From: an uncultured Gammaproteobacteria bacterium
GTDB lineage: Bacteria; Patescibacteriota; Microgenomatia; Levybacterales; UBA12049
Reading direction: 5' to 3'
Length of the DNA: 64,000 nt
Assembly (NCBI GenBank): GCA_964571255.1
Contig: CAZNAA010000001.1
Coordinates: 16,167-80,166 of the forward strand
The notes below the pieces were generated by a model. It did no database searches. It worked only from the letters and a program-made list of their open reading frames with translations, and was not told where the DNA came from. Made by a program: the position numbers and the translations under genes. This document shows positions 4,493 to 64,000 of the stretch, piece after piece (positions within the stretch are counted from its first letter, which is position 1; each line of letters opens with the position of its first letter).

Positions 4493-5129
4493 TTTCTCCT
4501 TCCTTTCTCTTTTTTTTCTTGAGGAAAATAAAGAGTTTTTTCAGTCCGTGATCCACACTAGTTTGGACACATAATAAGCCAACAACAAAGCTAGCTAGAG
4601 ATAATCGGAGCATTCCTTGAATTTGATCAGTAGTAATATTACTATCTTTATATAGTTGTTGCCCAAAGGAATAGACGAATCCATCAGGAGCATTAATTGA
4701 TTGCAGGTATGTTTCGTCTACACTTAATCTTGGAGTAGGAGATGTCTTTTTGGGAGCTAAATTTAAGGCTTGTAAAACGGTTTGACGAACAGATGCAGGT
4801 TGCACTTGTGGTTGAGGTGTAGGAGTAGGACGTGTTGTATTTCCACTTTGTCCAGGAGTAGGTGTTACAGGTGGAGTAGTCACTTCAGGGGTGGGAGTGG
4901 GTGTAGCCGTTGGTTCCGGTTCAGGGGTTGGAGTGGGAGTGGGTGTAGCCGTTGGTTCCGGTTCAGGGGTTGGAGTGGGAGTGGGTGTAGCCGTTGGTTC
5001 CGGTTCAGGGGTTGGAGTGGGTTCCTCTTCTTGAGCAAAAACAAAATCAATAAGAGGCACCTGTGCATGTACTGCCCGTGCTAAAAAAATGACACAAAAA
5101 AAGCCAATAAGTACTGATCGTAATTTCAT
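4485..5129 (-). CDS. Secreted Pro/Thr-rich repeat protein
   Basis: Signal-peptide-like N-terminus. Three tandem [14 protein letters not shown] repeats. Overlaps the GH8 start by 8 nt, consistent with an operon. Confidence 0.5.
4903..5028. repeat. Three copies of a 42-nt tandem repeat (encodes [14 protein letters not shown])
   Basis: The direct repeat ggttggagtgggagtgggtgtagccgttggttccggttcagg is visible three times. Confidence 0.85.
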
Positions 5130-5220
5130 ACCTGCCTGAATACTAAAACATTATACTATAAGTTGTGTATGAAAAGCAATATAGAAGTGTAAGAAACATT
5201 TATAAGATACTTTTCTTCTC

Positions 5221-7537: not shown

Positions 7538-8695
7538 ATGAGTTTAAAAAAGTCATTTGTAATTTTCCTCTCAAGCGCGTATGTTGCGTTTCTTTTGTTC
7601 CAAATGTTCACACCTCGTGTTCCTGTTTCTTCGTTTTTTGAGGCTGGGAAAAAGATTGAATGGCCAGCTACAATTGATGGACTTGAATCTACTATTGATC
7701 TTCCTTCATGGAATATGGCGCCTGACTTTTATCCACTTAATACTCCTATTACTCCAAGGATTCAAATTGAAAATCCAGCATCCAATAGTGCAGTGACAAA
7801 AACGGTTTATTTATATGTGAGTAAGGTACTAGAGTCTCCAAAAGGAACAGACGTCACGTCTGGATATCCAGGTCAATTAGGACTAACACAGGATGAATTG
7901 AATACAAATGAGCAAAGTAAAAATGATGTACAAGAAGTACCAACGGTGTATACCGTTGGAGATATTACTCTTCAACCTGGTACTTCAACGTCAGTTTCTT
8001 ATACTTTTACGCCTCCAACTGCAGGATACTATCAGGTTGATTTTAGTACACTTCCTCCAGGACAGGGGTATATCCATGGCTATATCTTAGCTGCAGGATT
8101 TATTAGAGTTCTTCCGGTAACGACAGCAGAAGTTACTCCAACACCAAGTAACCCTCAACCAACTGCAACTCCTACTCCTGGGCAAGCTGGCCAAACTCAA
8201 GCTGCAACTACTTCTAGCAATGTGAATGTAGTTACTGGACAAGTTGCCAGTGCTGTCTTGACTCAGTCAGTTGCTCTCCCAAGAACAGGGAAAGGGGAGG
8301 AAACTTACGAAGTAGGGAATTTTATGCTTAAAAAACATAGTTATCTTCTGATTTCTGATCTGGATTTGATAAAACCACTCTATGCTGGATCACTAAAAAA
8401 TAACACCTTTGTTGTTGGTAAAGGACTTGTTAGTGATATCAACACTGATACAACCAGGGTAATGTATGGACATAATACTACAGACGTATTTGGCAATATC
8501 CACACACTCACGAAAGGGAAAACGATTAAAGTATATGAAAATGGAGAAACAACTACCTATTCTGTAACTTCTATCAAGAAAGTATCATACGAAAATGTGA
8601 AAGCTTTACAAGGCGGAAAAGACACATTGCTTCTTATTACCTGTGACCTTACAGATTCTTCAATAAGAGTAATCATTACAGCAAAGAGAATTTAA
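7538..8695 (+). CDS. Surface protein with C-terminal sortase catalytic domain preceded by an LPRTG motif
   Basis: N-terminal signal anchor and a PT-rich linker. VALPRTGKGEE is followed by a sortase-like domain with the conserved His (VMYGHN), the TLLLITCD Cys motif and a C-terminal Arg (IRVIITAKRI). Confidence 0.6.
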   Translation: MSLKKSFVIFLSSAYVAFLLFQMFTPRVPVSSFFEAGKKIEWPATIDGLESTIDLPSWNMAPDFYPLNTPITPRIQIENPASNSAVTKTVYLYVSKVLESPKGTDVTSGYPGQLGLTQDELNTNEQSKNDVQEVPTVYTVGDITLQPGTSTSVSYTFTPPTAGYYQVDFSTLPPGQGYIHGYILAAGFIRVLPVTTAEVTPTPSNPQPTATPTPGQAGQTQAATTSSNVNVVTGQVASAVLTQSVALPRTGKGEETYEVGNFMLKKHSYLLISDLDLIKPLYAGSLKNNTFVVGKGLVSDINTDTTRVMYGHNTTDVFGNIHTLTKGKTIKVYENGETTTYSVTSIKKVSYENVKALQGGKDTLLLITCDLTDSSIRVIITAKRI

Positions 8696-19200: not shown

Positions 19201-19623
19201 ATCTATCGCGTCCTCAGGTAAATCTCCTACAGCATCAACTGCTGCTTGGACATCTGATCGAGCTTTTTCAGCATCAACTCCAGATTCAAACTCAAGAGTG
19301 ATAGTTGATACAGAGTCACGAGAAGTTGAGGATATTTTTGAAATTCGAGCTAGATTATCGACAGAGTCTTCAAGGGGAATTGTAATAAGTGACTCAATGT
19401 CTTTTGGACCTGCTCCTGGAAGTATTGTATTTACGATCACAATTGGAATATTAATTTCAGGATTGAGAACACGAGGAAGATTGAGGAAACTGTATGTCCC
19501 TATGATAATTGTAAGAAGCACTGCAAGAATTGCTAATCTTGGATTAAACAAATAAGAGGCAATAGCTGAGTTCTCAAGCTTAGGGTCAAACCGAAGTTTG
19601 GAAAGAAAGGATTGTTCGCTCAT
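16300..19623 (-). CDS. RND family efflux transporter permease (AcrB-like)
   Basis: 1107 aa. 12-TM architecture with two large extracytoplasmic loops. N-terminal region typical of AcrB/HAE1 pumps. Confidence 0.8.
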   Translation of the reverse strand: MSEQSFLSKLRFDPKLENSAIASYLFNPRLAILAVLLTIIIGTYSFLNLPRVLNPEINIPIVIVNTILPGAGPKDIESLITIPLEDSVDNLARISKISSTSRDSVSTITLEFESGVDAEKARSDVQAAVDAVGDLPEDAIDPNVIKLDFTNAPVWTFALSGDTDTGSLMRYTKILQERIQTLPSVDRVEISGFQEEEIQIILNQTALSSYKVNIFQLSQGIQNTLKSFPAGNVKSSQSNFSLSLDPSVTSLEKLRLLPVSLNNTIVPLGDLAEISIRTKPGQTPSLLTHDKKTTPAVVFNIFKTSTANIDESVEEVKKLFETENQLKQGEFKIFSIIDSAEEITNQFKELQKDFLITVGLVFIVLFIFLGIRQAIIASLAIPLTFLISVSVMYFTGIDLSFISLFSLLLALGLLVDDTIVVASAITAYYRTSKFTPIQAGLLVWRDFLIAIFTTTVTTVWAFLPLLLATGIIGEFIKPIPIVVSSTLMASFIVAMFITLPFVIMFLQREVAPRVKILGKILGISLIGFILYSLLPKGNLFLAELLALLLVVFITFTVKDLLKAHLDRFIKDKLPRKNTRNIQAYLDEGVIHFGIISDRYHSLIESILSSASKRRLTVAMVLIFSLFSFILLPLGFVKNEFFPRSDQKYLYLSLSLPSGTNQDQAISESEKIVSKIEQMDEFEFVTTEIGQGISQMSGGSQEGQGANIVLFSLLLKDGESSIEMSEILRSQFKTYTAGTLSVVEVSGGPPAGSDLQITLFGNDLPTLSVYADKLQANLETKSGVINVNKSIKEGTSKVTFVPNLALIAEKAITLDQIGFWLRTYATGFSVDSVTFSELDDEEKDITIRVGKDSQSIESIGAIQVPTSQGNTPLAGLGTFVLENNPTLITREDGKRSIAITAGVRPGFSISTLNSELETFANSLKLPSGYSWKTGGVNEENQNSVNSILAAMLLSFLLIIITMVLQFGSFRRALIVMLVIPLSISGVFIVFALTGTPLSFPALIGVLALFGIVVKNAILVVDKIIQNQKAGLSFIPSIADAAASRLEAIALTSVATIMGLIPVTVSDPLWRGLGGAIIAGLTFSGTIMLFFIPVVYYYWFAPKTSSSKK

Positions 19624-19625
19624 AA

Positions 19626-21059
19626 TTATTTTGTAGAAATGTCATCTCCGTTAAAGATAGTACGGGAAAGAATAATCGTATCTCCTTTTTTAATTCCCTC
19701 AAGTACTTCAACAAATCCTCCATATACTTTTCCTAAACGTACTTTTTGAGAAAAAGCTTTACTATTTTTAGCTATATAGATATACGCTGTATCAGCTGTT
19801 TGATATACAGCATCAAGTGGAACATACATGGTAGTGACTGAGACAGACTCTAAAGGAATACTAATTGTTACTGATTCTGAATCAGTAGCTTCTTTTTGTA
19901 AAGAAGAAGGAAGGGTATAGAAAGCGGTATATAATACTCCTTCAATTGCTTCATCACTCACAAATCGTGGGAAAATTTCATGCGTTTTTCCTTTAAGAGA
20001 CAAAATACTTGGTTTTGCTTTGGAAATAGTTTTTGCAACTTCTTGAGGAAGAGAAACAGATACTGTTGTTTCTCCATTTTTTGCAACGACTGTTGCAACA
20101 GGCATCCCTGGAGTTACTGTTTGTCCTTCGGTCACATATACTTTTTGTACTACTCCTCCAACTGGACTTGCAGGAGTCATAAGAGAAGCACCAATGTAGG
20201 CAAGACTTGATTGTAAACGGGAAATATCTTTTGAAAGAGAAAGTCCTTTTTCCTGAAGATCTAATTGTTTAAGAGTAATTTCTTTTTGTAAACTACTCAA
20301 AAGAGTAGGGGGATTAGTAGTATTTGTTTGATAGTTTAGCTGACGTTGTCCTTGGAGCAGTTGACTTTGTCCTCCAAGCAGTTGGGCAATAGTACTTTTT
20401 AATCTAATAATCTCCTCAGATGTATCTGGAAGGCCACTGGATTTGAGAGTCTCTAAATTAGTATTTAATGAGGTGAGAATACTGTTATTTAAATCAATAA
20501 GAGATTGGGTATCTCCTTTAGATTGTTCAGTGATTTTTCTCAGCTCCTGTGTATTTTGAGCGGATGCTGTTGCTATATCTCGTTGTTTTGCGATAAGGTC
20601 TTTTTGCAAATCAAAAGTTTCGAGTGTATTTTTGTATTGCTTATACGCAATTGCAGATTGAACTGCTGGAGCGTTATCTCCTTGATAGTTTGAAGATAAG
20701 CGAGTGAGGACTTGTCCTTTTTTGACTGTGTCTCCCTCTGTTACTTCAACCTTTTGGACTACTCCTGCAGTTTGAGCTGAGATAGTAATTACGCCTGATT
20801 TATCCACTGTTCCTTGAAGAGTAACGGTTGGAGAATCACCAATACTAAAAGTTCTGACGTCTTTTCTCATTGCTTTTTCTTCCTCAACTTTTGCAGGAGT
20901 AGTGAGTATTTTATTTGCAACCATGAGAAGAAAGAGGAGAAAAAGTGCAATAAAAAAGTTAAGCAGAGGACGCTTTCGGACGTCTTGTCTTACTACGATG
21001 TATCCACGAATAGAGCTTTCTTTTGCAGAGTGAAATAGAGAAATGATTCGATCTTTCAT
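19626..21059 (-). CDS. Efflux pump periplasmic adaptor / membrane fusion protein (HlyD-like)
   Basis: N-terminal TM, long coiled-coil and beta-barrel/lipoyl-like segments. Lies immediately upstream of the RND gene. Confidence 0.65.
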   Translation of the reverse strand: MKDRIISLFHSAKESSIRGYIVVRQDVRKRPLLNFFIALFLLFLLMVANKILTTPAKVEEEKAMRKDVRTFSIGDSPTVTLQGTVDKSGVITISAQTAGVVQKVEVTEGDTVKKGQVLTRLSSNYQGDNAPAVQSAIAYKQYKNTLETFDLQKDLIAKQRDIATASAQNTQELRKITEQSKGDTQSLIDLNNSILTSLNTNLETLKSSGLPDTSEEIIRLKSTIAQLLGGQSQLLQGQRQLNYQTNTTNPPTLLSSLQKEITLKQLDLQEKGLSLSKDISRLQSSLAYIGASLMTPASPVGGVVQKVYVTEGQTVTPGMPVATVVAKNGETTVSVSLPQEVAKTISKAKPSILSLKGKTHEIFPRFVSDEAIEGVLYTAFYTLPSSLQKEATDSESVTISIPLESVSVTTMYVPLDAVYQTADTAYIYIAKNSKAFSQKVRLGKVYGGFVEVLEGIKKGDTIILSRTIFNGDDISTK

Positions 21060-43827: not shown

Positions 43828-44811
43828 TCTTTAGGTTTATAAGCTCTTTAACAATCGAAAAGTGGTAGGGAATTTAAGAATTTGGACTTCCCTTATCAGT
43901 TACGCACTGATATTTTTTGTCCTTATTCATTGATAGAGAATAAAAACTCTGTCATATTTTTTTGAGAATTTGATCCTGGTTCAGGATGAACGCTGGCGGC
44001 GTGCCTTAGGCATGCAAGTCGAACGAAAAAGTCGCAAGATAATTTAGTGGCAGACGGGTGAGTAACGCGTAGGAATCTACCCCTGGGAATCGCATAGCCC
44101 TCCGAAAGGAGGGGTAATACGATATGGTCTCGCAAGAGTAAAGGACTTAACGGTCCGCCGAGGGAGGAGCCTGCGTCCTATCAGCTTGTTGGTGAGGTAA
44201 TGGCTTACCAAGGCGATGACGGGTAGCTGGACTGAGAGGTTGATCAGCCACAACTGCACTGAGACACGGGCAGTACACCTACGGGTGGCAGCAACTGGGA
44301 ATATTCGGCAATGGACGAAAGTCTGACCGAGCGACGCCGCGTGGAGGAAGACGGCCTTCGGGTTGTAAACTCCTTTTGCCAAGCCCTTCACGGCTTGGAG
44401 AATAAGCCTCTACTAACTACGTGCCAGAAGTCTCGGTAATACGTAGGAGGCAAGCGTTATCCGGATTTATTGGGCGTAAAGTGTGCGTAGGCGTTCTTTC
44501 AAGTCATGGCTTAAAGACCGGGGCTTACCCTCGGATTTGGTTGTGATACTGGGAGAATTGAGGATTGACAGGGGTGCTGGAACAGTTAATGTAGCAGTGA
44601 AATGCGTTGATATTAACTGGAACACCGATGGCGAAGGCAGGCACCTGGGTTATTCCTGACGCTGAGGCACGAAAGCTAGGGGAGCGAAACAGATTAGATA
44701 CCTGTGTAGTCCTAGCTGTAAACGATGTCCGCTAGCTATCACTCACCAAGGATACAAGGGAGTACTTTGTATTTTTAGTGAGTGGTGGTGTAAGCTAACG
44801 CGTTAAGCGGA

Positions 44812-44871
<60 letters not shown>

Positions 44872-44989
44872 CCGGTGGAGCGTGTGGTTCAATTCGAGAC
44901 AAAGCGAAAAACCTTACCAAGGTTTGACATCTTACCGTTTTATACCTATGGAAACACTGGTAGATCCGAAAGGATGGTAAGACAGGTGT

Positions 44990-45024
<35 letters not shown>

Positions 45025-45321
45025 CCCTTAAGTGGGGAAACGAGCGCAACCCCCGCTGAATGTTAAATATTCATTCGGGACAGCCCCAATTATTTGGGGA
45101 GGAAGGAGGGGAAGACGTCAAGTCAGCACGGCCCTTATACCTTGGGATACACACACCCTACAATGGCGAATAACAACGTGTTGCTAGCAGGTAACTGCAT
45201 GCTAATCACTTAAATTTCGCCTCAGTTCAGATTGAGGTCTGCAACTCGACCTCATGAAGTCGGAATCGGTAGTAATCGCGGATCAGAAGGCCGCGGTGAA
45301 TACGTTCTCGGGTCTTGTACA

Positions 45322-46102
45322 AATTAAATGCGCCTGGCAGTTTAAAAGACAAGATGGTGAAAATCCATCCTAGTAGTTGAAGAACAGGACCTCTCTTGTA
45401 AAAGAAGGTCTGAAGGGTTCGATGTAACGAAGAGCAGCCTAGATATAAAAAAGTGTTTCGACTCTTAGGTGTACTAAGAGGAAGAAAACAAGAAAAGCTT
45501 TTTAGGATGTTTGAAATTGTTTTTTAAATGACCCAGGGAGATCCTATACTGACAGAACACATAATTGAGTATAGGAAGTCAGCTGATTCCATAGTATTTA
45601 AATAGGTGTATACTTATTTAGAGAAGGGATGAACTCTAAACTAAATCCATATTATCTTGTTGGTTTGGTAGATGGAGAAGGATGTTTCTGCGTTTCTTTT
45701 AACAATCATAAATCTCATCGATTAATTGAAGTAAGACTTCTTTTTGAAATTGAACTTCGAGAAGACGATAAAGAGATTTTAGAACGAGTAAAAGAGACTC
45801 TTGGTTGCGGTAATATTTATTATCTTAACTATAAGCGATATCAAAAATGGAGACCTCACTATAAGTATAAGGTTTCTAACTTAAAAGATATCACTGAGAA
45901 AATTATTCCTTTTTTTACTACCTATCCTTTACAAGCTAAGAAAAAGGAGAGTTTTAATAAATTCTCTGAGGTTGCAAAGCTTATGCTTCGTAAATCTCAT
46001 CTTAGTGAAGAAGGTATTCAACATATAAAAGATTGGCAAGAGACTCGCTGGATGCGGGAAATCCGCACGTCCAGTGGGGAGGAACAGGTTTCTGATTCCA
46101 AT
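45322..46102 (+). mobile_element. Putative self-splicing intron in 16S rRNA (inserted between CTTGTACA and CACCGCCCGTC, E. coli ~1391-1393)
   Basis: The conserved string TTGTACACACCGCCCGTC is split at this point. The insert carries a homing endonuclease ORF. Boundaries are approximate, within about 2 nt. Confidence 0.6.
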
Positions 46103-47977: not shown

Positions 47978-48049
47978 GGGTGCATAGTTCAGCGGTAGAA
48001 CGCTTTCCTGATAAGAAAGAGGTGCATGGTCCGACTCCATGTGCACCCA
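47978..48049 (+). tRNA. tRNA-Ile (anticodon GAT), free-standing
   Basis: Manual fold: acceptor GGGTGCA/TGCACCC, D stem GTTC/GAAC, anticodon stem CTTTC/GAAAG with loop CTGATAA, T arm CATGG-TCCGACT-CCATG. Preceded by a TATAAT-like box. Confidence 0.8.
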
Positions 48050-48120
48050 CAGATTTGGATCGTTGGGAATGGTGCTTGCCACTCCCGCGATCGCTGGAAA
48101 ACTAAACAATTCAAAATTCA

Positions 48121-53616: not shown

Positions 53617-54303
53617 TTACGGAGTAACTATTTTAGCTTGAGGTGTAGCGTCTTGAGTTTGCACTCCTTGTACTGCAGTTTTTAGCATAATCGTTGCATT
53701 ACTTGGAGTTTTTAGGACACTTTCCTTCACTCCTGTGGCTGACACAAGGGAGGTTGGAAGAATTTTGATACTTGTTTGGGAAGGAGAACCATTACTTGGT
53801 GATTTTACGCTAAAGCCAAGTTTTGCTGCAACTCCTTGCCCTGATTTAGGATCTTGGGAGGGAGTTTTTGCAAACATAATGGTTGCAGTTCCGAGTGTAT
53901 TATCAATTTTAGCAGGAACAAGAACGAGAGGGTTTGGAAGGAATGTCCCAGGAGTGAGAGACGTTATAGAAACTACTTTTGGATCAAAGCTTATTTCTAG
54001 TTGAAAGCCAGAGACAGGATCTCCTTGAGAATCAACCATGATATCCAACGTTTGTGTAGCTTTTGTTGCCGTATCAACAGTTAATGATGAAGGAGAAAAA
54101 GACAACAAAGTGTGAGCTGGAGGAGTAGGGGTAGGAGCCATAACTTTTTTGTCTTCTGGAAGCCCCATTTTTGTTCCTGAGCGCATACGAACTGCTACAA
54201 AGATAAGAAGTACAGTTAAAGCAAATAATCCAAGAATAAGAAGAATTGTTTTTACAGAAATCGTTGAGCTAGTTGGTTGTTGGGAAGGTGTGTTATTTTC
54301 CAT
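53617..54303 (-). CDS. Membrane-anchored cohesin-domain protein (anchoring scaffoldin-like)
   Basis: N-terminal TM and a PTPTPP linker. Cohesin-like module: DIMVDSQGDPVSGFQLEISFDPKVVSITSLTPGTF...DNTLGTATIMFAKTP...GVAAKLGFSVKS. Confidence 0.55.
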   Translation of the reverse strand: MENNTPSQQPTSSTISVKTILLILGLFALTVLLIFVAVRMRSGTKMGLPEDKKVMAPTPTPPAHTLLSFSPSSLTVDTATKATQTLDIMVDSQGDPVSGFQLEISFDPKVVSITSLTPGTFLPNPLVLVPAKIDNTLGTATIMFAKTPSQDPKSGQGVAAKLGFSVKSPSNGSPSQTSIKILPTSLVSATGVKESVLKTPSNATIMLKTAVQGVQTQDATPQAKIVTP

Positions 54304-54354
54304 AATTCTCTCTTCTTATTAAAATATGTCAGGTCGTCTATTGCAAGAGGCAAT

Positions 54355-56130
54355 TTACTGACCAAACTGGACAGATAACTCTCTGATGAATAAGTTGTAG
54401 TCAAAATGGTTATTCTTCCCATCATCTGTCAGATCAGTCATTACTTTTTTACTCGGATCACTGCAAGCTTTGGCAGGAAGGGCATCACTATAACAATCCA
54501 TAATCTCATTGTAGTCAAGAATGTCTAACTTGTTATCATTATTTACATCTCCTGATACTAACTGGATAGAATCAAGTGCAATAGTTGAATCAACAGATAT
54601 AACTCCTGGATAGACTTTTTGAAGATACTTATTAGTTTTTACTTTAATCGTGTATTCTCCTTCTAAAACGTCTGGGATAGTGACTATTCCATCATAATAG
54701 CCGCTCAGTACTGCTGGTTGGATATCGCCTGGGGGAGGAACAGGAACATAACTCATCATCCCTGTTGCTTCTTTGATCAACTGAGTATTGTTTAGTTTGC
54801 TGTAGAGTCCAACGGTTACTTCTTTTGTCACTGTTTGTGGAGTTTTATTACTTAAAGAACTATCGGTATTTTTATTGTCTCCACTATTACCAATTCCATG
54901 AAGGAAAACAGCTAAGTTGATACTCACATCAATCATACTTGTTGTTGCAGGAACTGAAACTTCATTCGAGGTTTTACACAGTACCGTCGTAGTACAGGCT
55001 GTTACTTTAAAAGTATAGGCAGTATTGTTGGCTACATCAATCGTAGCACTTAGTCCACCAACTGCCACAGGAGAAGTAGCGTATGTTCCTGTACCTGTTT
55101 TCATATAGACACTATACGTTGCGTCTCCTACGTTGTTCCAGGATAGTTTAACGTCTCGTCTATTGTTTGATTTAGGAATAATAGTATCAAGAGAAAGGGT
55201 AAGATTCGGAATAGGGGTAATGACTGTGGTAGGAGTAGGAGTTGCTGTTGGCGTAAGGTCGTTAGTTACGATTTCTCTATCTAATTCCACACTTCCTGAG
55301 TAAAGAATAACTGGAATGGATGTCGGGACAGATAGGACATTGTTATAGGAACCAGAAGCATTCACGGGAATTTTTGTCCCTGTTTCTCCAAATTTCAAAG
55401 AAACATTAGGAGCAGATTGTGTCTCCCATACTACGTTGACATTACAAGAGGGAAAGGCTGGGCAGTTTCCAATACTGGTACTTGTAATTCGTCCTGTTGG
55501 ACTAGGAGTTGGAGTAGCTGTCGGAGGAACCACAGTAGTTGGGGTAGGAGGAATATCAAAGGATATCGTTGCGGGAACAGCACTTTCCAAAACATTTTCT
55601 GAAGCTAAGTCTTCTGAGCTAATCGAGAACACTTGAGTTTGATCACTTCCGGTTAATAATCTAATTTGTTTTGTTCCAGTGAGAAGAGACGTATTTGAAC
55701 TTGTTTTAAAGGAAAAGCTTGCAACTCTTGTTGGTTGTGAGGCAGCTCCTGTTGGGTTGTTGCCAATCGTAACTACTCCTATTGCTTGTCCAGTTGAATA
55801 GATAGGACCTTCAATCACTTGTCTGAAAACGTCTAGATTTGGATTAAATTTCTCAGGTACGGGAGTAAAGACTGCTGGATCAAATGTAAATACATATCGA
55901 ACCGTTGAGACTAAGTTATTTCCAGGATTTACATAAAGATCTAAAACAAATTCCTCACCTGGCTGTACTACTTTGGTAGTACCAGGAGTAGCTGTATCAA
56001 AATAGAGTGTCGTAGATTTTGCTGCACTTGAGCGATTTTCTTGGTTTCTTTGCAAAACAAAAATGGTTAAAGGAACTGAGAGAAAGAGCAGAATAATTAG
56101 TCCCAACAAAAAAATATTCTTTGAGTGCAT
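54355..56130 (-). CDS. Adaptor protein with N-terminal cohesin-like module, Ig/FN3-like repeats and C-terminal X-dockerin
   Basis: Cohesin-like: VQPGEEFVLDLYVN...VRYVFTFDPAVF...RVASFSFKT. C-terminus: GDVNNDNKLDILDYNEIMDCY...DLTDDGKNNHFDYNLFIREL (two dockerin Ca-binding repeats). Confidence 0.55.
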   Translation of the reverse strand: MHSKNIFLLGLIILLFLSVPLTIFVLQRNQENRSSAAKSTTLYFDTATPGTTKVVQPGEEFVLDLYVNPGNNLVSTVRYVFTFDPAVFTPVPEKFNPNLDVFRQVIEGPIYSTGQAIGVVTIGNNPTGAASQPTRVASFSFKTSSNTSLLTGTKQIRLLTGSDQTQVFSISSEDLASENVLESAVPATISFDIPPTPTTVVPPTATPTPSPTGRITSTSIGNCPAFPSCNVNVVWETQSAPNVSLKFGETGTKIPVNASGSYNNVLSVPTSIPVILYSGSVELDREIVTNDLTPTATPTPTTVITPIPNLTLSLDTIIPKSNNRRDVKLSWNNVGDATYSVYMKTGTGTYATSPVAVGGLSATIDVANNTAYTFKVTACTTTVLCKTSNEVSVPATTSMIDVSINLAVFLHGIGNSGDNKNTDSSLSNKTPQTVTKEVTVGLYSKLNNTQLIKEATGMMSYVPVPPPGDIQPAVLSGYYDGIVTIPDVLEGEYTIKVKTNKYLQKVYPGVISVDSTIALDSIQLVSGDVNNDNKLDILDYNEIMDCYSDALPAKACSDPSKKVMTDLTDDGKNNHFDYNLFIRELSVQFGQ

Positions 56131-56184
56131 ATACCTATATAGCGTATGGAATTTGTAACAAGACTGTCAATAGGAAGAACACTG

Positions 56185-58635
56185 TTATTCTCCAAACTGA
56201 ACTGAAAGTTCTCGGATAAGTAGGTTGTAATCTGTTTGGTTGACTAATCCTTCGTCAGTAAGATCAGTGATTTTTTGCTTTTCAGGAGTACAAGCTTTTG
56301 CAGGGGAAATATCTTGATAACAATCCATGAGCATATTGTAGTCAAGAATATCGAGTTTACTATCAGCTGTTACGTCTCCAGTAACTAGAGTAAGTTCAGG
56401 AACTTCAACAAGCGTCCCATCAGTTACTTGGACAACCCCTAGTCCTCTTCTTGGTAAGTATTGAGGAACAGACAGTCTAACTTGATAATCTCCAGGTTCT
56501 AGCAAGTCAAAATTCACAATTCCTTTAAAAGTTCCAGAACTTGAGGAATTAGGTTCGGAAAAATATTTGATACTCGAGAAGGATTTAGTAACGAATGTGT
56601 TATTTTTTGTAAAGAGCTCAAGTGTGACTAATCGTTGTTGGTTTACTGGATTTTTATTTCCTCCGAGAGGATTTTTATTGTCTCCACTATTACCAATTCC
56701 ATGAAGCTTTACGGTAAGAGAGAAAGGTGTTCCATTTTGAGTCATAGTAGGAGTTGGAAATGGTGTACTGGTTGGAACAACTGTAGGAGTAGGAGATGGT
56801 GTTGGGGTAGGGTGGCGAGTAGGAGTTGGTGTGGGGGATGGAGTACTCGTGGGAGTAGGAGTTGCTGTTGGGATTCTTATAGGGGTAGGAGTAACTGGAG
56901 AAATAGCACATTGAGGAGTTACTTGGGATACGTTACTGCATTTTGCACCGATTTGGGTAAAATCTGGTTGTTGGTCAAGTTCTGTTGCTTGAAGAGCGTT
57001 TTTTACTTGAGTACAGGTAGGAGAGTCATATAAATCATCACAGGCACGAAGAAGAAGCGTATAGACAGCTTTGTAGTTAGTATTTGGACTAAAGTAAGTA
57101 GTGAGAGCTCGATACATAATCGCATGACTTTTCTCACTCCCAATTCCTTCAACAGTACATCCATTAAAATTTCCTCCATTTGTCATAAGGTAAAATGCTT
57201 TATTCATGACTCCATTATTCCTGTGAACTCCACAATAGTCGTTAGTTTGATCACAAGTACTTCCATTTGCAGGACAATAATAGTTGGTTGAGAATAATCG
57301 ATCAGGCTGAGATCCTTCAGGGCTTCTCGTAGGATCATCCATATATCTAATTATGCCTATGCTGGAATCTTCACCAATAGTCCAGTCAGGGTCGAGTGCA
57401 TTGGCAAAAATATCAGCAAGGGATTCATCCAGTGCACCTGATTGAGCTTGATAGATGAGTTGAGCAGTAGCACTGGTAACTGCGTGGGTAACTTCGTGAG
57501 TAATAATATCTTTTGTTACTAACCCGTCACAAACAGCAATCATATTAATCTCACCAATCCAAGCAGCATTTGGACAAGGAAATACGTCTCTATCTGCCAT
57601 GTGAACAAAAGCTTCAAGAGGTGATCCTGAACCATCATAACTATCTCGGGAGTATGTATTGTTGTAGTAGTTGTAAATATCTCCAAAATAGGCATAGATG
57701 TTGTCTACGTCGGGATCACCCACAGGACCTTCTCCTTCTTCTCGTGTTACTGGACAAAGACCAGTGATTGGATTACATTGTCTCTCATCAAATATGTAGC
57801 GTTCTAACCCAGTATGAAAAAGAGCATCCGTATAGATAATATTGCCTGTTTCTAAATCAATAAAATATTGGTGAGGAAAGCTGATTCGAGAAGCATTTTG
57901 TCCAATAGTTACTGCCAGAGTTAGATAATTTTTACTATCCTCAGAAATTCCTAAAAGCTTTTTATTAAAAATATATTTCCCTTTTTCTGTATGTTTTATT
58001 TCTTTATTTGTTTTAGTATCAAGGATGTATTGCTCTTTGGCTTTTTGTATTGCTGTGTCTTCTGAAATTTTTTCTCCTTTAAGTGTCTCGTTTTTTACTA
58101 AACTTCCATCAAGTGCATAGATTTTATTTTCTTCTTTCATATGTACTCCTAAAATACCTCCATATACAGGGATACCCTGAATAGTTTGGTTGTAGAAGTA
58201 ATGAGAGGTATCAAGAGTGAGGCCTCTCTCTTTATAGAATTGATCATCAGTGGTATCAAAAGAGCGAACTAAAGTAGAATTTTTGGCAAATTGAGAGGGA
58301 AGGAGTGGACCTGTTGTTACTCCTTGAACAGGATTTTCACTTTGTGTTTCTTGTACTTCATAGGTAGGGTTTGTCGTAATAAATTCCTGAGCCCCTGTTT
58401 CTCCATCTAATCGAGTTTCATATAAACTTCCATTTGTTTCATAAAGAGAAAAATGAATTACGTTTCCTTCCTCAACCACTCCTTCACCTGAAACAAGAGG
58501 GTTTTGTTCACCTGTTGCTCTACTATCTAGCCGTGATTGTTTAGTTCTAACATAGAGTGAGAAAAGGATAATTCCTATACATAAAAAGAGGGAAAGAGAA
58601 ATAAATAGAAGTTTTTTTGAAAAAGAAAATTTCAT
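56185..58635 (-). CDS. Thermolysin-like (M4) zinc metalloprotease with C-terminal X-dockerin module
   Basis: ITHEVTHAVT (HExxH) ... LDESLADIF (ExxxD). PT-rich linker, then LHGIGNSGDNKN module and dockerin repeats (DVTADSKLDILDYNMLMDCY / DLTDEGLVNQTDYNLLIREL). Confidence 0.7.
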   Translation of the reverse strand: MKFSFSKKLLFISLSLFLCIGIILFSLYVRTKQSRLDSRATGEQNPLVSGEGVVEEGNVIHFSLYETNGSLYETRLDGETGAQEFITTNPTYEVQETQSENPVQGVTTGPLLPSQFAKNSTLVRSFDTTDDQFYKERGLTLDTSHYFYNQTIQGIPVYGGILGVHMKEENKIYALDGSLVKNETLKGEKISEDTAIQKAKEQYILDTKTNKEIKHTEKGKYIFNKKLLGISEDSKNYLTLAVTIGQNASRISFPHQYFIDLETGNIIYTDALFHTGLERYIFDERQCNPITGLCPVTREEGEGPVGDPDVDNIYAYFGDIYNYYNNTYSRDSYDGSGSPLEAFVHMADRDVFPCPNAAWIGEINMIAVCDGLVTKDIITHEVTHAVTSATAQLIYQAQSGALDESLADIFANALDPDWTIGEDSSIGIIRYMDDPTRSPEGSQPDRLFSTNYYCPANGSTCDQTNDYCGVHRNNGVMNKAFYLMTNGGNFNGCTVEGIGSEKSHAIMYRALTTYFSPNTNYKAVYTLLLRACDDLYDSPTCTQVKNALQATELDQQPDFTQIGAKCSNVSQVTPQCAISPVTPTPIRIPTATPTPTSTPSPTPTPTRHPTPTPSPTPTVVPTSTPFPTPTMTQNGTPFSLTVKLHGIGNSGDNKNPLGGNKNPVNQQRLVTLELFTKNNTFVTKSFSSIKYFSEPNSSSSGTFKGIVNFDLLEPGDYQVRLSVPQYLPRRGLGVVQVTDGTLVEVPELTLVTGDVTADSKLDILDYNMLMDCYQDISPAKACTPEKQKITDLTDEGLVNQTDYNLLIRELSVQFGE

Positions 58636-58637
58636 AA

Positions 58638-59069
58638 TTATTGTTTTTTATATTGAATAAGTATTTGCGTTGGTGTTACTTCGTAGAGGTCAAAAATATA
58701 TCCAAAGGCTACTTGGCTTTTTGGGATACTTCCCATGATTCCTCCACTCTTGAACTCAATTATTTGTTTCTTTGTGTCATTTATTACTTCTAGACTAACC
58801 TGAGTAATACAATCTCGACAGTTTTCTTTAGGAATACTCGCACTTGTTAGCATAAGAGTTATTTGAGAAGTTGGAAGAGATACAGGGTAGTCTTTTATCA
58901 CTGCTATTACGTCTTCAGGAAGAGTAGTTGGAGAAGGAGAGGATGGAGTAGGAGAGAGAAAAGGGTTTTGTTTCATGTAGGTGAAGTTTGTTAAAGAAAG
59001 AATACGTGAAAGTGCGACAATAATTAAAATACTTATACAAAAGATGACAAAAATATTTAAATGCTTCAC
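58638..59069 (-). CDS. Small membrane-anchored protein, unknown
   Basis: N-terminal TM. 143 aa. Lies between the dockerin genes. Confidence 0.3.
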   Translation of the reverse strand: MKHLNIFVIFCISILIIVALSRILSLTNFTYMKQNPFLSPTPSSPSPTTLPEDVIAVIKDYPVSLPTSQITLMLTSASIPKENCRDCITQVSLEVINDTKKQIIEFKSGGIMGSIPKSQVAFGYIFDLYEVTPTQILIQYKKQ

Positions 59070-59132
59070 AAGAAAGTATGATCTTACACTACCTCATTAT
59101 TGGTGGAGTAAAGAGGAAGTGTCAAGGGGAAA

Positions 59133-62100
59133 CTATTGTCCTTTTTTTGCAGGAAGTTCTCGAACAAAGAGATTGTAGTCTAATTGGTTTACTTTTCCAT
59201 CATCATTCAAATCCGATAGTCGAGCAAGTTCATCGTCACATGAGCGAGCACTTGATTTAATATCTTTATAACAGCCATCAATAATATTGTAGTCAAGAAG
59301 GTTCAACTCGTTATTCCCATCGGTATCTCCAGTCACTAGAGTAAGAGGAGGATGAACATTGACTTCGCCAAGCTTCACGCTAAAGAAAGTAAGTGGTTTG
59401 ACTAAGTATTGGTCCATTTTCACTTTTGTATAGTATTTGCCTTCAGCGATATCAATTCCAAGTGGGATAATTCCTTTGAAGACTCCTAACTCTTTGTTAT
59501 AAGAAACAGTTCCTATTTTGGTATAAACAAGTGCATTTTGCTCATTAAAGAACTGAACTGCTAGAGATCTGTTTTTGTGTTGAGGATCTTTATTGCTCTT
59601 GTCACTGACTGTCCTATTCGTATAGTCTCCAGCTTCTCCAATTCCATCAAGAAGGAGAGTTAGATCAAAGGCAGTTCCGTCTCCAAAGGAGAAGTTTCTA
59701 TGCCAAATATCCCAATCTGAACTCCAAACGGCTGAGAGTTTAGAGTCATATGAAATTGGAGAAATATCAACTCCCGTAGCTCCTTGTTGTCCAAATGTTG
59801 TAGCTTGTGTCCATGTTCCGTCCATATATTTACTATATTTCATTCGTTGCTCACCAGAGTTATAGGCGATAAGAATTCCACCTGTATCTGTCACTCCAAT
59901 AGAAGGGTTAGTTCCATTTTCTTCTTGAATTACCCGATTATTGCTTGAAGTGCAGTCTGAATTAATAGTTTTCTTACAGTAATGGATGTCAAAATCTTCA
60001 CTCCAGACAAGATGGACATTGCCACTAGTATCAGCAGTTATTTGTTGTCCGTTTCCAGAACTAATCACTTTGTCAGCGAAGGTACTTTCTCCTGGTTTTA
60101 ATGTCAGGTAATGAACACCATTTTTTCCAGCGACGATATGAACAGTATCTTCAGAATCAATAGCAATATCTGGCTTGGAATTTGCCGTATCAATTTCTTT
60201 GTAGGTACTACAGGTATTATCCTCTGTATTAAAAATGCAGTATTTTGTTTTAAAATCACCATCTGCAACAATGTGAAATCTTCCTTGACTATCGACTGCA
60301 ACATTTGGAGAAAGTCCTACACCTATTTGGGAAATAGGGACTACCGACTGGGGTTTAAAGTCTGATTTAGAATATTTAGCAACCATGAGGTTAGAGGGAC
60401 CAGCCCAGGTGATAATAATATGAGTATCGTTTACAGCTATTGCTGGTGCACATCCTTGGGAAGCACATGTATTTCCTACGGTGCCTTGTATTGGAAATGT
60501 ATATTTATTTCCGTTCCAGACCCCTTTTGCATAGTTTATTCCTTTTGCATTTTCAGGTTCTGTTACTTCCCATGCTATATAAATATTCCCACTTTTATCT
60601 TTATATACTTTTGGTCTAATATCTTTTGCATCACCAACTGATATTTGGTCGTCTTCTCCATCAGGAGGTAGTGAGACAGAGGGAGTGATAGATGTTGAAG
60701 GAGTTGGTGGTGTATCCCATGTAGTTGAGCAATTATTCATTCTCTCTTGTTCTTTGATAAAGTTCCAAGGTTTACCAAAAATGGCAGTAGATGCAGCATT
60801 TAAGGCATTATTTCGTACTTCTTCTGCTGGTTTAGTGGCAGAAGAGTGTTCCCACGGATAAGCAATTTTTCCGTTCTTTAATTCTTTCATGAAATTATTC
60901 CAGGTAACTCTTCTCCCTAGAACATCGCCATACTTTGCAATATTAGCAGCTAGCTGCCCTCCATCTCCTTCTGTCCCTTTTGTAGTGGTTATAGCATAAA
61001 TTCTATTGGTGTAATACAAAAGAACAGGGTTAGTTTCTGTTTGACTCCAGCCTCGGCAAGCGTATGTAGCGTTTTGTTTATTTCCATTACACCATTGTGT
61101 TACCCAGTACTCCCCACAAACATCAAGTTCATTTCTATTGGTTCCAGGATCTCTATTTGCAACATGAGCTGGGCAGATATTTGGGGTAAAGGAAGGGAAG
61201 TCTTTTCTGAAATTAACTGGAGGAATCATTAACTGCTCGTCACAACTTACAGGAGTAGATGAAGTTGGTTTAGGCGTAGGGATAACGGTACAACTGGCTG
61301 TCTCTGCAATCATTCTGTCTTTCTCTTCTTGCATGTTCCAGCCTCCACTTGGCAGAATACTGAATTTTTTCTTGCGTAAATCAAAATTTGTAATATCAAA
61401 ACCAATTACGTCAGAAAGCATTTGAAGAGTTACCTTCTGTCCTACAAGAATATATCTTTCGTCACTATTTGGATCGTTTGTTTTATATGGTTTTACTGTA
61501 GGGTTGTTAACAGTTAAAGTTCCTGCATAAAAATCTTCTATCTGTTTGTTAATTTGAGTTGCGCTATACGCTGGTCCATCCGTACTTCCGCCTTTTTCAT
61601 CAATTAAATTTCCTATAGCGCCAACTGCAACACCCATAATTGCATACTTTTGTACAACACCTAAACTAATTGTTCTATTTGCGGTTTCACTAGAGTATCT
61701 CCCGTAATACATTGAATTTACTTGTCCAATAAAAGTTGACCAGGCTGAAGTTGCGTAACTTCTCCCTGAAAACTCACCACGTACAATATCTTTCCTTGGG
61801 TCATATCGGACGGGGAGTGGTCCCCCATGAGTTACTTTGTACTCGAGTGATCCATCGTTATTGTATCTATAGGTAGACGTCTCTTGTCCAGCTTCGATTA
61901 CAGGGCCTGGTACTATTGAATCTCTTTTTTCTTCGTCAAAGTAGTCAGGAGGAAATCTTTTTTTTTCTGATCCCAAACTATTATTTCCTAGAAGCCAATC
62001 AGGAACTGGTTTCCATTCTTCAAATGAACAGAATAGTTCTGATGTGTCTGCTGCTCTTTGTCTATTATCTTGATTTTGACTATTCAGATAAATAGTGAGG

Positions 62101-62189
62101 GGAAGTGCTATAAGGAGAAAAGCCAAAATTATTCCTCTGGTAAATAGGGATTTATGTAACTCAATAAAAGCAGTAAGCTTTTTCATCAC
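59133..62189 (-). CDS. Large secreted protein with beta-propeller-like repeats and C-terminal X-dockerin
   Basis: N-terminal TM. Repeated HIVA/VHLVW blade-like segments. C-terminus: GDTDGNNELNLLDYNIIDGCY...DLNDDGKVNQLDYNLFVREL. Confidence 0.55.
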   Translation of the reverse strand: MMKKLTAFIELHKSLFTRGIILAFLLIALPLTIYLNSQNQDNRQRAADTSELFCSFEEWKPVPDWLLGNNSLGSEKKRFPPDYFDEEKRDSIVPGPVIEAGQETSTYRYNNDGSLEYKVTHGGPLPVRYDPRKDIVRGEFSGRSYATSAWSTFIGQVNSMYYGRYSSETANRTISLGVVQKYAIMGVAVGAIGNLIDEKGGSTDGPAYSATQINKQIEDFYAGTLTVNNPTVKPYKTNDPNSDERYILVGQKVTLQMLSDVIGFDITNFDLRKKKFSILPSGGWNMQEEKDRMIAETASCTVIPTPKPTSSTPVSCDEQLMIPPVNFRKDFPSFTPNICPAHVANRDPGTNRNELDVCGEYWVTQWCNGNKQNATYACRGWSQTETNPVLLYYTNRIYAITTTKGTEGDGGQLAANIAKYGDVLGRRVTWNNFMKELKNGKIAYPWEHSSATKPAEEVRNNALNAASTAIFGKPWNFIKEQERMNNCSTTWDTPPTPSTSITPSVSLPPDGEDDQISVGDAKDIRPKVYKDKSGNIYIAWEVTEPENAKGINYAKGVWNGNKYTFPIQGTVGNTCASQGCAPAIAVNDTHIIITWAGPSNLMVAKYSKSDFKPQSVVPISQIGVGLSPNVAVDSQGRFHIVADGDFKTKYCIFNTEDNTCSTYKEIDTANSKPDIAIDSEDTVHIVAGKNGVHYLTLKPGESTFADKVISSGNGQQITADTSGNVHLVWSEDFDIHYCKKTINSDCTSSNNRVIQEENGTNPSIGVTDTGGILIAYNSGEQRMKYSKYMDGTWTQATTFGQQGATGVDISPISYDSKLSAVWSSDWDIWHRNFSFGDGTAFDLTLLLDGIGEAGDYTNRTVSDKSNKDPQHKNRSLAVQFFNEQNALVYTKIGTVSYNKELGVFKGIIPLGIDIAEGKYYTKVKMDQYLVKPLTFFSVKLGEVNVHPPLTLVTGDTDGNNELNLLDYNIIDGCYKDIKSSARSCDDELARLSDLNDDGKVNQLDYNLFVRELPAKKGQ

Positions 62190-62236
62190 TTATTAGAGTA
62201 AAGGAGAGTACCTCATGCTGTCAACAATAAGTCTCT

Positions 62237-64000
62237 TTATGGGGCAACTTCTCGATAGATATATGTATTGGTTTTCAAAAGCTCAGGAGCGTTTAAAACA
62301 AAATCCAGTCGTTCCTTTACTGAAAGAGAAGGATAGGTAATGTTGAAAGCACAAAGATCACGTCTATTAATAAAGCTTCCTCCACTAAGTCCGGCGTTGA
62401 CTACTAAGGCTCCATCAACATTGAGTTGTAAATCATCTCCGTTTCCATTGCTACAGTTAGCTCCTGCTCCAGTTGGATCCTTAGCGTCAATAATAATAGA
62501 TTCATCAGCACTAAAAAAACCTTGCATTTGTCCACTTGTTGAAGGAGCAGGGCAAGAAAAAGCGCTGGTTCCCACATCTTTAGTAACGGTTATATCTCCT
62601 TTTACAGAAAAAGTACTGGTAGAGGAGACAGGAGTAGTAATTTGTCCATTAATTGTTAGGTCTCCATTGATAAGGAAAATATGATCCTTATTTGCCCCCA
62701 GCGTACTGTTTCCTGTAAGTGTGACGTTACCATTTGCCCTATAAATTCCATTGGCTGGATTATTGAGGGTGCAGTTAGAAAGGTCAGAACACACTGTTGT
62801 TAAATCAGTTGGAGTAATGTTTGAGGTCTCTGCTGCTCCGAGTAAGTAGTCATAGGATGTTTGGAGTCCTGCAGTGACGGTATTTTGGTTTCCGCTAAAG
62901 AAAGTAAAATATTCAGGGAAGGGAGTGCCTAGTACCCAATTTGTACTGGAGGCTGCCCCCACGCCTCCAAAGGCACTGGAGGGGGTAGAGGTACCAATAA
63001 GTAAGACTCCAGGATTACTATTATTGCCAGGAACAAGAGTATATCCTCCGTTACAGGCACTTGCATTAGAAACGGTATTGTTCAGTCCACCATCAAATCT
63101 TCCATCAGATCCAACCATTTGGATCCAGGGAATTGAATCTGAAATAGCAAAATCAAGATCTTGAATATCACACACTGTGGTATCAATATATGATGCCCCT
63201 GTCGTTGTATCTAAAGGACCACTGGTACAAATTGGCCCTACCTGTACTGAATAAGCAGGTGGGGTGGTTCCACGGGGCCAGATAACTCTGTATCCAGCAG
63301 GAAGTGGGGAAGTGAGAGAAATTGTTCTTACTCCAGATGGAATATTAGAGAGCGTATAGCTTCCGTTAATACTATTTGTTGTGACTGTTCCGCTCGTTGT
63401 TGTTCCACTGATCTCAAGACTTCCACTAGTATATATGCTGTCTCCTCCATCAAATATTTTATTCTTATTTCTGTCGTTAAATATTCTACCCGATACCGTA
63501 TGAAGAGGAGAAATTCCAAAGTTAACTGTTGTTGGCTGAGTAAGAGAAATAGAACGTAAAGAAGGAGTGGTTAGTTGATACCCGGCAGGAGCAGTATATG
63601 AGACATCGTAAGATGAAGGAGCAAGGTTTGTTCGAGCATAGTGTCCATTACTATCAAGAGGAGTAGCTGAACCATTTACTAACACATTTCCTCCACCAGT
63701 ATACGTAACTTCTCCAGTATCTATGAATCCATTTTCGTTAAGATCAATAAAGACATCGCCACTGATATAGGGATTTCCTCGAACGGTAACTGTTCCTAAG
63801 AGAGCCTCTGGGAAGGAATAACTACTTCCATAGAGTTCAAATACAGAAGGATTTTCATTAATCCAAGGAGCGACTGATGATCCTGAAGTATTAGAAGATG
63901 CAGGAGAAAAGTCTGTACTATCAATTTCAACTCTGATCGTATCAGCATCTGAGGTGTTCCAGGAAATAGTACTTGAACAAGTGAAGTCTCCGTCTTGGAT
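62237..64000 (-). CDS. Secreted parallel beta-helix-like repeat protein (N-terminus beyond window end)
   Basis: The frame is open to the window edge and the track start is only the first in-frame GTG. Repetitive G/N/T-rich beta-strand repeats (GNVTLTGNSTLGANKDHIFLINGDLTINGQITT). Confidence 0.45.
   Translation of the reverse strand: MQDGDFTCSSTISWNTSDADTIRVEIDSTDFSPASSNTSGSSVAPWINENPSVFELYGSSYSFPEALLGTVTVRGNPYISGDVFIDLNENGFIDTGEVTYTGGGNVLVNGSATPLDSNGHYARTNLAPSSYDVSYTAPAGYQLTTPSLRSISLTQPTTVNFGISPLHTVSGRIFNDRNKNKIFDGGDSIYTSGSLEISGTTTSGTVTTNSINGSYTLSNIPSGVRTISLTSPLPAGYRVIWPRGTTPPAYSVQVGPICTSGPLDTTTGASYIDTTVCDIQDLDFAISDSIPWIQMVGSDGRFDGGLNNTVSNASACNGGYTLVPGNNSNPGVLLIGTSTPSSAFGGVGAASSTNWVLGTPFPEYFTFFSGNQNTVTAGLQTSYDYLLGAAETSNITPTDLTTVCSDLSNCTLNNPANGIYRANGNVTLTGNSTLGANKDHIFLINGDLTINGQITTPVSSTSTFSVKGDITVTKDVGTSAFSCPAPSTSGQMQGFFSADESIIIDAKDPTGAGANCSNGNGDDLQLNVDGALVVNAGLSGGSFINRRDLCAFNITYPSLSVKERLDFVLNAPELLKTNTYIYREVAP

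Follow-up and report, generated by a model that had tools for sequence, protein, structure and literature searches.

What would a reduced genome do with cohesins and dockerins? The question is raised by positions 53617-64000 of a 64,000-nt stretch of DNA (contig CAZNAA010000001.1 of assembly GCA_964571255.1, forward-strand positions 16,167 to 80,166; hereafter the window), in which an earlier note, made from the letters alone, had seen a cellulosome-like cohesin-dockerin locus in a Candidate Phyla Radiation (CPR)-type genome. Hidden Markov model (HMM) searches, structure prediction, calcium (Ca) loops and synteny all bear out that description. The likely reading is that a Levybacteria-like bacterium has here the core operon of a two-tier system for protein display, built from cohesins and from proteins ending in an X-module-dockerin (XDoc) dyad, and displaying adhesins and hydrolases with no part in plant-wall breakdown. 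The region holds six open reading frames (ORFs) on the minus strand, running from P6 through P5, P4, P3 and P2 to P1 with intergenic gaps of 2-63 nt. The strand and the clustering had been reported correctly, and the number of genes had been given as five, P4 having gone uncounted.

53617-54303, minus strand: P1, 228 aa, transmembrane (TM) anchor with a single cohesin; final gene of the operon
54355-56130, minus strand: P2, 591 aa, adaptor with an N-terminal cohesin and a C-terminal XDoc
56185-58635, minus strand: P3, 816 aa, predicted secreted M4 (thermolysin-like) zinc metalloprotease with a C-terminal XDoc
58638-59069, minus strand: P4, 143 aa, small protein with an N-terminal TM helix
59133-62189, minus strand: P5, 1018 aa, propeller-like cargo with a C-terminal XDoc
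62237 to beyond 64000, minus strand: P6, first gene of the cluster, of which the window holds the 3' part only

P2, P3 and P5 share a conserved C-terminal unit of about 180 aa, in which an HGIG..GDN motif is followed by about 100 aa of beta structure and then by a dockerin. The LHGIGNSGDN stretch together with the roughly 100 aa downstream of it is an X-module, and with the dockerin it makes up a type II-like XDoc dyad.

54358-54924, minus strand: XDoc dyad of P2, residues 403-591, C-terminal
56188-56739, minus strand: XDoc dyad of P3, residues 633-816, C-terminal
59136-59678, minus strand: XDoc dyad of P5, residues 838-1018, C-terminal

Pfam Dockerin_1 (PF00404; gathering threshold, GA, 22.9 bits) recognises the dockerin half in P2 (23.0 bits) and P3 (24.5 bits), as the HMM check proposed in the earlier note had anticipated for an adaptor and for a protease ending in the same module. 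P5, whose XDoc end that note had not made explicit, falls below GA at 17.9 bits and scores E=8.7e-59 against the XDoc family HMM. Across the family, 50 of 85 members match Dockerin_1 at E<=1e-4 (best 2.9e-9). Both predicted Ca-binding repeats, and the conserved Cys pair said to separate them, are intact in all three proteins. The first loop follows the pattern GD-x-[NTD]-x-[DN]-x-x-L-[DN]-x-L-D-YN and the second D-L-[TN]-D-[DE]-G-x-x-N-x-x-D-YN, which places acidic or amide residues at loop positions 1, 3, 5, 9 and 12 of both. Across 42-150 family members, these loop positions show little or no variation; the Cys pair between the repeats and the H-G-x-G..G-D-N motif are invariant across the family, and both repeats end in D-Y-N. 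The module therefore has the two F-hand loops of a dockerin, each followed by a helix, and is predicted to bind Ca.

The structural evidence is consistent with this. An AlphaFold2 (AF2) model of residues 633-816 of P3, with a predicted local distance difference test (pLDDT) score of 91.9 and a predicted template modelling score (pTM) of 0.87, consists of a beta-sandwich (4-122) packed on helices 131-139, 152-158 and 168-177. When this model was compared with the PDB by Foldseek at E<=1e-3, only nine chains were found, aligned over 184-193 columns, and all nine are type II XDoc dyads from Clostridium thermocellum CipA/CipB or Acetivibrio cellulolyticus ScaA. By sequence profile, the XDoc family also finds the CipA XDoc 2b59_B (E=8.2e-8), in an alignment that runs from the final X-module strands through both Ca loops. 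Profile and model agree in making the XDoc a homologue, by sequence as well as by fold, of the type II XDoc found in clostridial scaffoldins. As in the CipA and ScaA dyads (2b59, 3kcp, 5g5d, 4u3s), the model has an immunoglobulin (Ig)-like beta-sandwich directly upstream of, and packed on, a three-helix dockerin with two Ca loops. Unlike the clostridial dyads, the Levybacteria family adds the invariant HGIG..GDN loop and the invariant Cys pair, and carries DYN in both repeats.

The cohesins, on which such dyads would dock, are found in P1 and P2.

54190-54246, minus strand: TM helix of P1, residues 20-38, followed by a linker of about 22 aa rich in proline and threonine (PT)
53668-54123, minus strand: cohesin of P1, residues ~61-212, class 'cohA', found by Pfam and family HMM
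56020-56130, minus strand: N-terminal hydrophobic signal of P2 (residues 6-37) with the motif PLT...Q..R..A
55546-56019, minus strand: cohesin of P2, residues 38-195, divergent class 'cohB', found by profile and AF2
residues 216-400 of P2, minus strand: middle part, a beta-rich region of about 185 aa with PT linkers

P1 had been described as a small TM-anchored protein with a cohesin-like module, and this is confirmed by Pfam Cohesin (PF00963; E=1e-9, 39.2 bits, GA 24.1) and by the cohA family HMM (E=8.6e-45). No dockerin was found on P1, and the family as a whole has one architecture, namely MSKKT, a TM helix, a linker of about 21 aa, the cohesin and nothing more. For the N-terminal domain of P2, BLASTP and a PDB sequence search gave nothing convincing, and the cohesin emerges by profile and structure methods only. 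Residues 31-205 scanned alone against Pfam Cohesin score slightly below GA (21.9 bits, E=2.2e-4); 18 of 37 orthologous cohB domains match it (best 1.6e-8). The cohB and cohA profiles are aligned by hhalign over 142 columns with 98.7% probability (E=3.7e-16), at an identity of only about 22%. The AF2 model of the P2 domain (pLDDT 92.4) is all-beta, and of its 91 Foldseek matches in the PDB at E<=1e-3 the best 50 are cohesins without exception (types I, II and III), led by CaCohA2 (6kgf_C, E=3.5e-10, TM-scores 0.66/0.77). By Pfam, profile and model together, the N-terminal domain of P2 is a cohesin with the cohesin fold (a nine-stranded beta-sandwich, or jelly-roll), in agreement with the adaptor architecture proposed earlier, and by sequence the system has two cohesin classes, cohA and cohB. 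The cohB domain is N-terminal throughout, and the protein that bears it nearly always ends in XDoc, an architecture seen in 38 of 152 representative proteins and in 52 ORFs of related loci. Significant HMM and structural matches were thus obtained for both partners, and the paired Ca loops are present, the findings with which the earlier claim was to stand or fall.

Next, the distribution of the system was considered. A word-indexed homology search with the XDoc module gave 2 matches only, and an exhaustive profile search was required; it returned 2520 clusters at 50% identity with E<=1e-3, of which 865 reach E<=1e-30. Within the best-scoring 150 clusters the dyad is full-length and nearly always C-terminal. 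A genome scan with one genome per species yielded 76 loci, nearly all in metagenome-assembled genomes (MAGs) titled Levybacteria, Levyibacteriota, Microgenomates or Patescibacteria. Chromosomes of 1.14 Mb and 1.61 Mb are among the carriers, and a closed 1.14 Mb chromosome has at least six XDoc genes across three sampled loci. The title 'Gammaproteobacteria' on several related records is probably wrong, given that they hold the same XDoc loci and that one of them is a closed 1.61 Mb chromosome. The fetched loci contain, as lower bounds per genome, 6-10 XDoc genes, 1-3 cohB-XDoc genes and usually one cohA gene. Among the ORFs of 77 loci, 101 are XDoc-only, 52 cohB-XDoc, 32 cohA-only and 4 cohB-only, the last mostly at contig ends. 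XDoc is C-terminal in 146 of 154 proteins and N-terminal in 3. One 569-aa protein (L001, 579-2288) has its XDoc straight after the signal, followed by an alginate-lyase-like domain.

Gene order is conserved as well. Of 32 cohA genes, 31 adjoin an XDoc gene and 22 a cohB-XDoc gene, and the operon typically runs from cargo-XDoc through cohB-XDoc to cohA as the final gene, as it does in the window. Related contigs were retrieved by exact look-up of P5 (from its second Met), P1 and P1 homologues; a look-up of P3 gave none. In the metagenome contig L081, at 87% DNA identity, the six genes stand in the same order. Contig L083, where cohA identity is 56%, is flanked in the same way, by a CofE-like gene and a 544-aa gene, and has different cargo, the syntenic position being taken by a 717-aa XDoc protein with a P5-type N-domain; cargo is therefore turned over at a fixed position. 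The same contig has a 121-aa gene with a 23S_rRNA_IVP (four-helix-bundle) domain at 6016-6381, between its P6-like gene and the XDoc genes. The CofE-like and 547-aa neighbour genes of the window are 48-58% identical to, and syntenic with, those of the Levyibacteriota contigs L004 and L056. The locus is thus conserved in related Levybacteria and Patescibacteria MAGs, as the earlier note had asked to be checked, and the source itself, as far as its genes tell, is a Levybacteria-like member of the CPR/Patescibacteria.

What the dyads carry indicates what the system may be for. In the window, the two cargo proteins are a protease and a propeller-like protein.

residues 143-179 of P3, minus strand: FTP propeptide motif (Pfam FTP 2.5e-7)
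residues 314-551 of P3, minus strand: catalytic domain (Peptidase_M4_C 3.7e-35, Peptidase_M4 1.4e-11)
residues 575-632 of P3, minus strand: long PT linker
62070-62189, minus strand: N-terminal signal of P5 with the motif PLT...Q..R..A
residues 40-500 of P5, minus strand: N-domain of about 460 aa, Cys-containing, with no assigned function
residues 530-835 of P5, minus strand: seven propeller-like repeats of about 45 aa each

The M4 assignment of P3 is supported by the FTP, Peptidase_M4 and M4_C matches, and the protein keeps the zinc motif HEVTH (380-384) and GALDESLAD (400-408). In P5, the motif P.IA[VI]D..G..H[IL]V recurs every ~45 aa, in line with the 1018-aa beta-propeller-like protein that had been announced; against PDB sequences, P5 and P6 have no match outside the dockerin. 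Beyond the window, 85 XDoc proteins without a cohesin were scanned with Pfam, and 43 families matched, of which the 25 commonest are listed. VWA (16 proteins) and SdrD_B (14) lead, before CarboxypepD_reg (8), CBM_4_9 (5) and SpaA (5), and further cargo domains are CARDB, CBM96, ricin lectin, cupredoxin, beta-helix, reprolysin-like M12 and S8. Display of adhesins and hydrolases is the most likely function, because the cargo consists mostly of VWA, lectin or carbohydrate-binding module (CBM), Ig-like and protease domains and the GH5 protein of the window lacks a dockerin.

Under this reading, the XDoc proteins would be exported by way of their N-terminal hydrophobic signal, and each dockerin would bind a cohesin in a Ca-dependent manner. 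Cargo would then be tethered to the cell surface in one of two ways, straight onto the P1 anchor or by way of the P2 adaptor, with the XDoc of P2 plugged into P1 and the cohesin of P2 receiving another XDoc protein. The displayed adhesins and hydrolases might bind or process the surface of another cell, or extracellular polymers. The signal itself is distinctive, a long hydrophobic helix with (I/V)PLT followed 8-12 residues further on by Q-x-x-R-x-x-A; the PLT...Q..R..A motif is present in 68 of 123 XDoc family representatives, in the window in P2 and P5, and as the variant KQSRLDSRA in P3. Possible explanations are a conserved site for signal peptidase and a dedicated sorting signal.

Several points weigh against this reading. 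The TM helix of P1 is flanked by more positive charges on its C-terminal than on its N-terminal side, and the presumed topology, with the cohesin outside, follows the family pattern and known cohesins. If the N-terminal signal stays uncleaved, the P2 cohesin would lie only about 12 residues from the membrane. A pairing of cohesin with XDoc is suggested by genetic linkage, whichever cohesin may take which XDoc. The dockerin helices are nearly invariant family-wide, and by mutual information with the presence of cohB no helix residue splits adaptor from cargo XDocs; because of this, the order cargo to P2 to P1 is one borrowed from cellulosomes. Finally, P4 and P6 have no assigned role in the display system.

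A role in attachment to a host, or in processing its surface, as suggested in the earlier note, is plausible, and the domain content of the cargo fits it. A more far-reaching version would make the system the attachment organ of an episymbiotic Levybacteria cell, a modular 'adhesosome' in which adaptors are chained head to tail from the membrane anchor, exchangeable VWA and lectin adhesins, proteases and the propeller protein face the host, and cargo turnover at the locus tracks host range. This is put forward tentatively, with a modest chance of being right.

The lack of separation between adaptor and cargo dockerins also allows a self-polymerising scaffold, in which both cohesin classes accept one XDoc, P2-like proteins join head to tail, and chains or networks rooted on P1 and capped by cohesin-less cargo form a modular surface fibre. 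There is a single XDoc family with nearly invariant dockerin helices, every cohesin protein except the anchor also bears an XDoc (52 cohB-XDoc against 4 cohB-only ORFs), genomes have 1-3 cohB-XDoc genes, and no multi-cohesin scaffoldin was seen. The non-cellulosomal Archaeoglobus fulgidus cohesin 2xdh is among the structural matches; the protein it belongs to has a cohesin and a dockerin on one chain. However, cohA and cohB are only about 22% identical, which in cellulosomes usually means different specificities, and a loop in the X-module hints at two specificity classes. The positions that best discriminate adaptor from cargo XDocs lie in this loop, which comes after HGIG..GDN and occurs in the forms (S)LSNK and GN, differing in length.

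residues ~422-430 of P2, minus strand: X-module variable loop, S-type
residues ~656-662 of P3, minus strand: X-module variable loop, G-type
residues ~859-869 of P5, minus strand: X-module variable loop, S-type

The LSNK form is found in 77 of 85 adaptor XDocs (91%) and in 82 of 195 cargo XDocs, counts that ignore kinship, and the loop is possibly a specificity determinant. Polymerisation as the basis of the system is, all in all, unlikely.

Could the locus instead be a true polysaccharide-degrading cellulosome, working on plant or algal polymers? It is built from homologues of cellulosome parts, domains of the CBM_4_9, CBM96, GH114, beta-helix or, in the L001 protein, alginate-lyase-like kind occur in some family members, and the window also encodes GH5, GH8 and an alpha-amylase. 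A cellulosome is defined by a multi-cohesin scaffoldin, usually with CBM3, and by dockerins mainly on carbohydrate-active enzymes (CAZymes), and neither was found here. No protein with several cohesins was seen in the window, by six-frame HMM scan, or in the 77 related loci, and this is why the system is not a classical cellulosome. The same six-frame scan found no XDoc on the GH5, GH8, glycosyltransferase family 2 (GT2) and alpha-amylase proteins of the window, where XDoc is borne by a protease, a propeller protein and an adaptor. In the 85 cargo proteins, VWA, Ig-like and lectin domains predominate; among the 25 commonest of 43 families, GH114 on one protein is the only glycoside hydrolase and CBM3 does not appear, the cohesin-bearing proteins not having been scanned for CBMs. 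The window does have a minus-strand cluster at 1805-7398, in which a GT2 of the cellulose-synthase-like kind occupies 1805-3313, a GH8 occupies 3317-4492, and positions 5221-7398 encode a 725-aa protein whose cellulase domain belongs to GH5. As the GH8 adjoins the cellulose-synthase-like GT2, it points to the cell's own exopolysaccharide, and the cluster looks like one for synthesis and trimming of a cellulose-like exopolysaccharide, not for biomass degradation. A plant-biomass cellulosome, which the earlier note had also set aside, is therefore very improbable.

That these cohesin and dockerin homologues do not pair at all, the XDoc serving as a Ca-stabilised tail that binds cell wall or glycan and the cohesin-like domains binding something else, is hardly credible: XDoc genes are several-fold more numerous than cohesin genes, and many non-cellulosomal dockerin-like and cohesin-like modules reportedly have no known partners, but an excess of dockerins is normal in cellulosomes, the linkage of cohA to XDoc genes is tight (31/32), cohesin and XDoc are fused on one protein in a quarter of the family, and the dyad matches, as a rigid unit, the cohesin-binding form of solved complexes.

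Returning to a two-tier display system, its closest functional parallels within cellulosomes are the anchoring and adaptor scaffoldins, such as C. thermocellum SdbA/OlpB and A. cellulolyticus ScaB, with which it shares a cell-bound cohesin (P1), a cohesin-dockerin bridge (P2) and clustered genes. It differs from them in having a single cohesin per protein, no multi-cohesin scaffoldin seen and no CBM3 among the listed cargo families, and in the anchor of P1, which is an N-terminal TM helix where cellulosome anchors use SLH repeats or a sortase signal. The use of the dyad differs too. In cellulosomes, it is confined to few scaffoldins and the enzymes carry X-less type I dockerins, whereas here it is on every cargo protein and on the adaptor. 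Clostridial XDocs sit on a scaffoldin and partner with type II cohesins; those described here sit on enzymes, adhesin-like cargo and single-cohesin adaptors, and, judging from the models, a type II-like dockerin would meet cohesins that are structurally nearest type I (type II cohesins rank lower among the PDB matches of the P2 model).

According to Peer et al. (2009), as cited in a passage of PMC8542988, non-cellulosomal cohesin-dockerin systems are well known. The Clostridium perfringens NagH/NagJ toxin complexes (2ozn/2vo8), A. fulgidus 2xdh and, in the relevant part of PMC8542988, the Cloacimonadota 'Ca. Stygibacter' resemble the present system in assembling proteases, adhesins or glycosidases unrelated to cellulose by cohesin and dockerin, and non-cellulosomal cohesin and dockerin structures appear among the structural matches of the modelled domains. 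Unlike these, the system belongs to CPR/Levybacteria with chromosomes of 1.1-1.6 Mb, uses a universal XDoc and two cohesin classes, and keeps a conserved order with the TM-cohesin last. Within the CPR, just two mentions were found. A passage of PMC9123182 (Bell et al.) reports expressed cohesin and dockerin genes in a 'Ca. Shapirobacterales' (Microgenomates) MAG, read as a cellulosome for organic-carbon use, and one of PMC10633639 describes, in the saccharibacterium Southlakia epibionticum, an essential envelope protein with a dockerin domain, for which the authors speculate on a link to host-cell glycans. Both passages give domain annotations only and mention no XDoc dyad, cohesin classes, operon or cargo spectrum. 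Literature that included few subscription-journal papers likewise gave no account of a Levybacteria XDoc as a universal tag, of two cohesin classes, of the operon or of its cargo spectrum. Taken from its sequence, the system is best filed with the non-cellulosomal kind; it would work like a minimal cellulosome-type display system and lacks the defining features of a cellulosome.

How CPR/Patescibacteria attach to or exploit other cells is largely unknown beyond few cultivated Saccharibacteria, and the system offers a concrete and widespread candidate apparatus, whose clearly defined parts can be expressed and tested for binding. It would also make the type II XDoc a general-purpose cargo tag far outside the Clostridia, with scaffolds that are single-cohesin and TM-anchored, and it is relevant to how cohesin-dockerin assemblies arose and how small they can be. 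Where CPR genomes are annotated with cohesins and dockerins, this should not be taken as evidence of cellulose degradation.

The DNA of the locus gives some indication of its history.

54868-54903 and 56671-56706, minus strand: identical repeat, 36 nt at 100% identity, in P2 and P3
36995-37213, minus strand: XDoc relic, the last ~50 codons of a fourth XDoc gene

The identical stretch had been noticed earlier near these positions, at a length of 33 nt instead of 36. The encoded peptide is in either case LHGIGNSGDNKN, with which the X-module begins its first strand and loop; the module DNA flanking the two copies is about 71% identical. The decayed dockerin copy that had been reported is confirmed by the family HMM (positions 134-177, the second dockerin half; E=1.5e-11). 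It lies between genes, with a PBP2-like gene on one side and topA on the other, retains the last part of helix 1 together with the Cys pair, the second Ca loop and helix 3, and aligns with the C-terminus of P5 (...DLNDDGKVNQL[N/D]YNL...). The recent duplication and shuffling suggested on these grounds is weakly supported at most. With just 37-47% protein identity, the XDoc modules of P2, P3 and P5 are old paralogues, which speaks against recent duplication; no more than the 36-nt patch is identical, and it is compatible with local gene conversion. Turnover of cargo at a fixed position is, as described above, observed.

P6 and P4 are the remaining genes of the cluster. P6, which the earlier note had taken for a beta-helix protein, is 1243 aa at full length in contigs L081 and L083. 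It is predicted to be large, secreted and adhesin-like, bearing Ig-like domains of the SdrD_B/CarboxypepD_reg kind (Pfam SdrD_B 7.3e-9) and a C-terminal domain of about 450 aa that is conserved; no cohesin and no dockerin were found on it. Its homologues stand beside cohesin or XDoc genes in 14 related loci and carry CBM_4_9 or CBM96, VWA, SdrD_B and SpaA domains. P4 has no Pfam or NCBIfam match and no homologue in the 77 related loci. It is intact in the window and split by a frameshift in the 87%-identical L081 (5189-5668), where both halves are conserved at the protein level; the frameshift reflects an error of assembly or else marks a very recent pseudogene. A scan of the region for promoters and terminators gave counts at chance level. 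The best sigma-70-like site (59125-59096, minus strand; 11/12 match) lies in the gap between P5 and P4, upstream of P4, and is a possible internal promoter for P4-P3-P2-P1.

Elsewhere in the window, a sortase-domain protein is encoded at 7538-8695 on the plus strand (Pfam Sortase 2.3e-14). The display system seems to be sortase-independent, as there is no obvious LPXTG tail on the cohesin and XDoc proteins here. A 16S rRNA gene at 43958-45369 (plus strand; about 1412 nt against a model of 1533 positions) has no adjacent 23S. tRNA-Ile(GAT) at 47978-48050 follows 2.6 kb downstream, with tRNA-Cys and several small ORFs between. Unlinked rRNA genes have often been reported for the CPR. Lastly, an AcrB-family transporter (1107 aa) of the resistance-nodulation-division (RND) type lies beside an HlyD-like membrane-fusion protein at 16300-21059 on the minus strand, a pair that looks unexpected in a presumed monoderm with a reduced genome.

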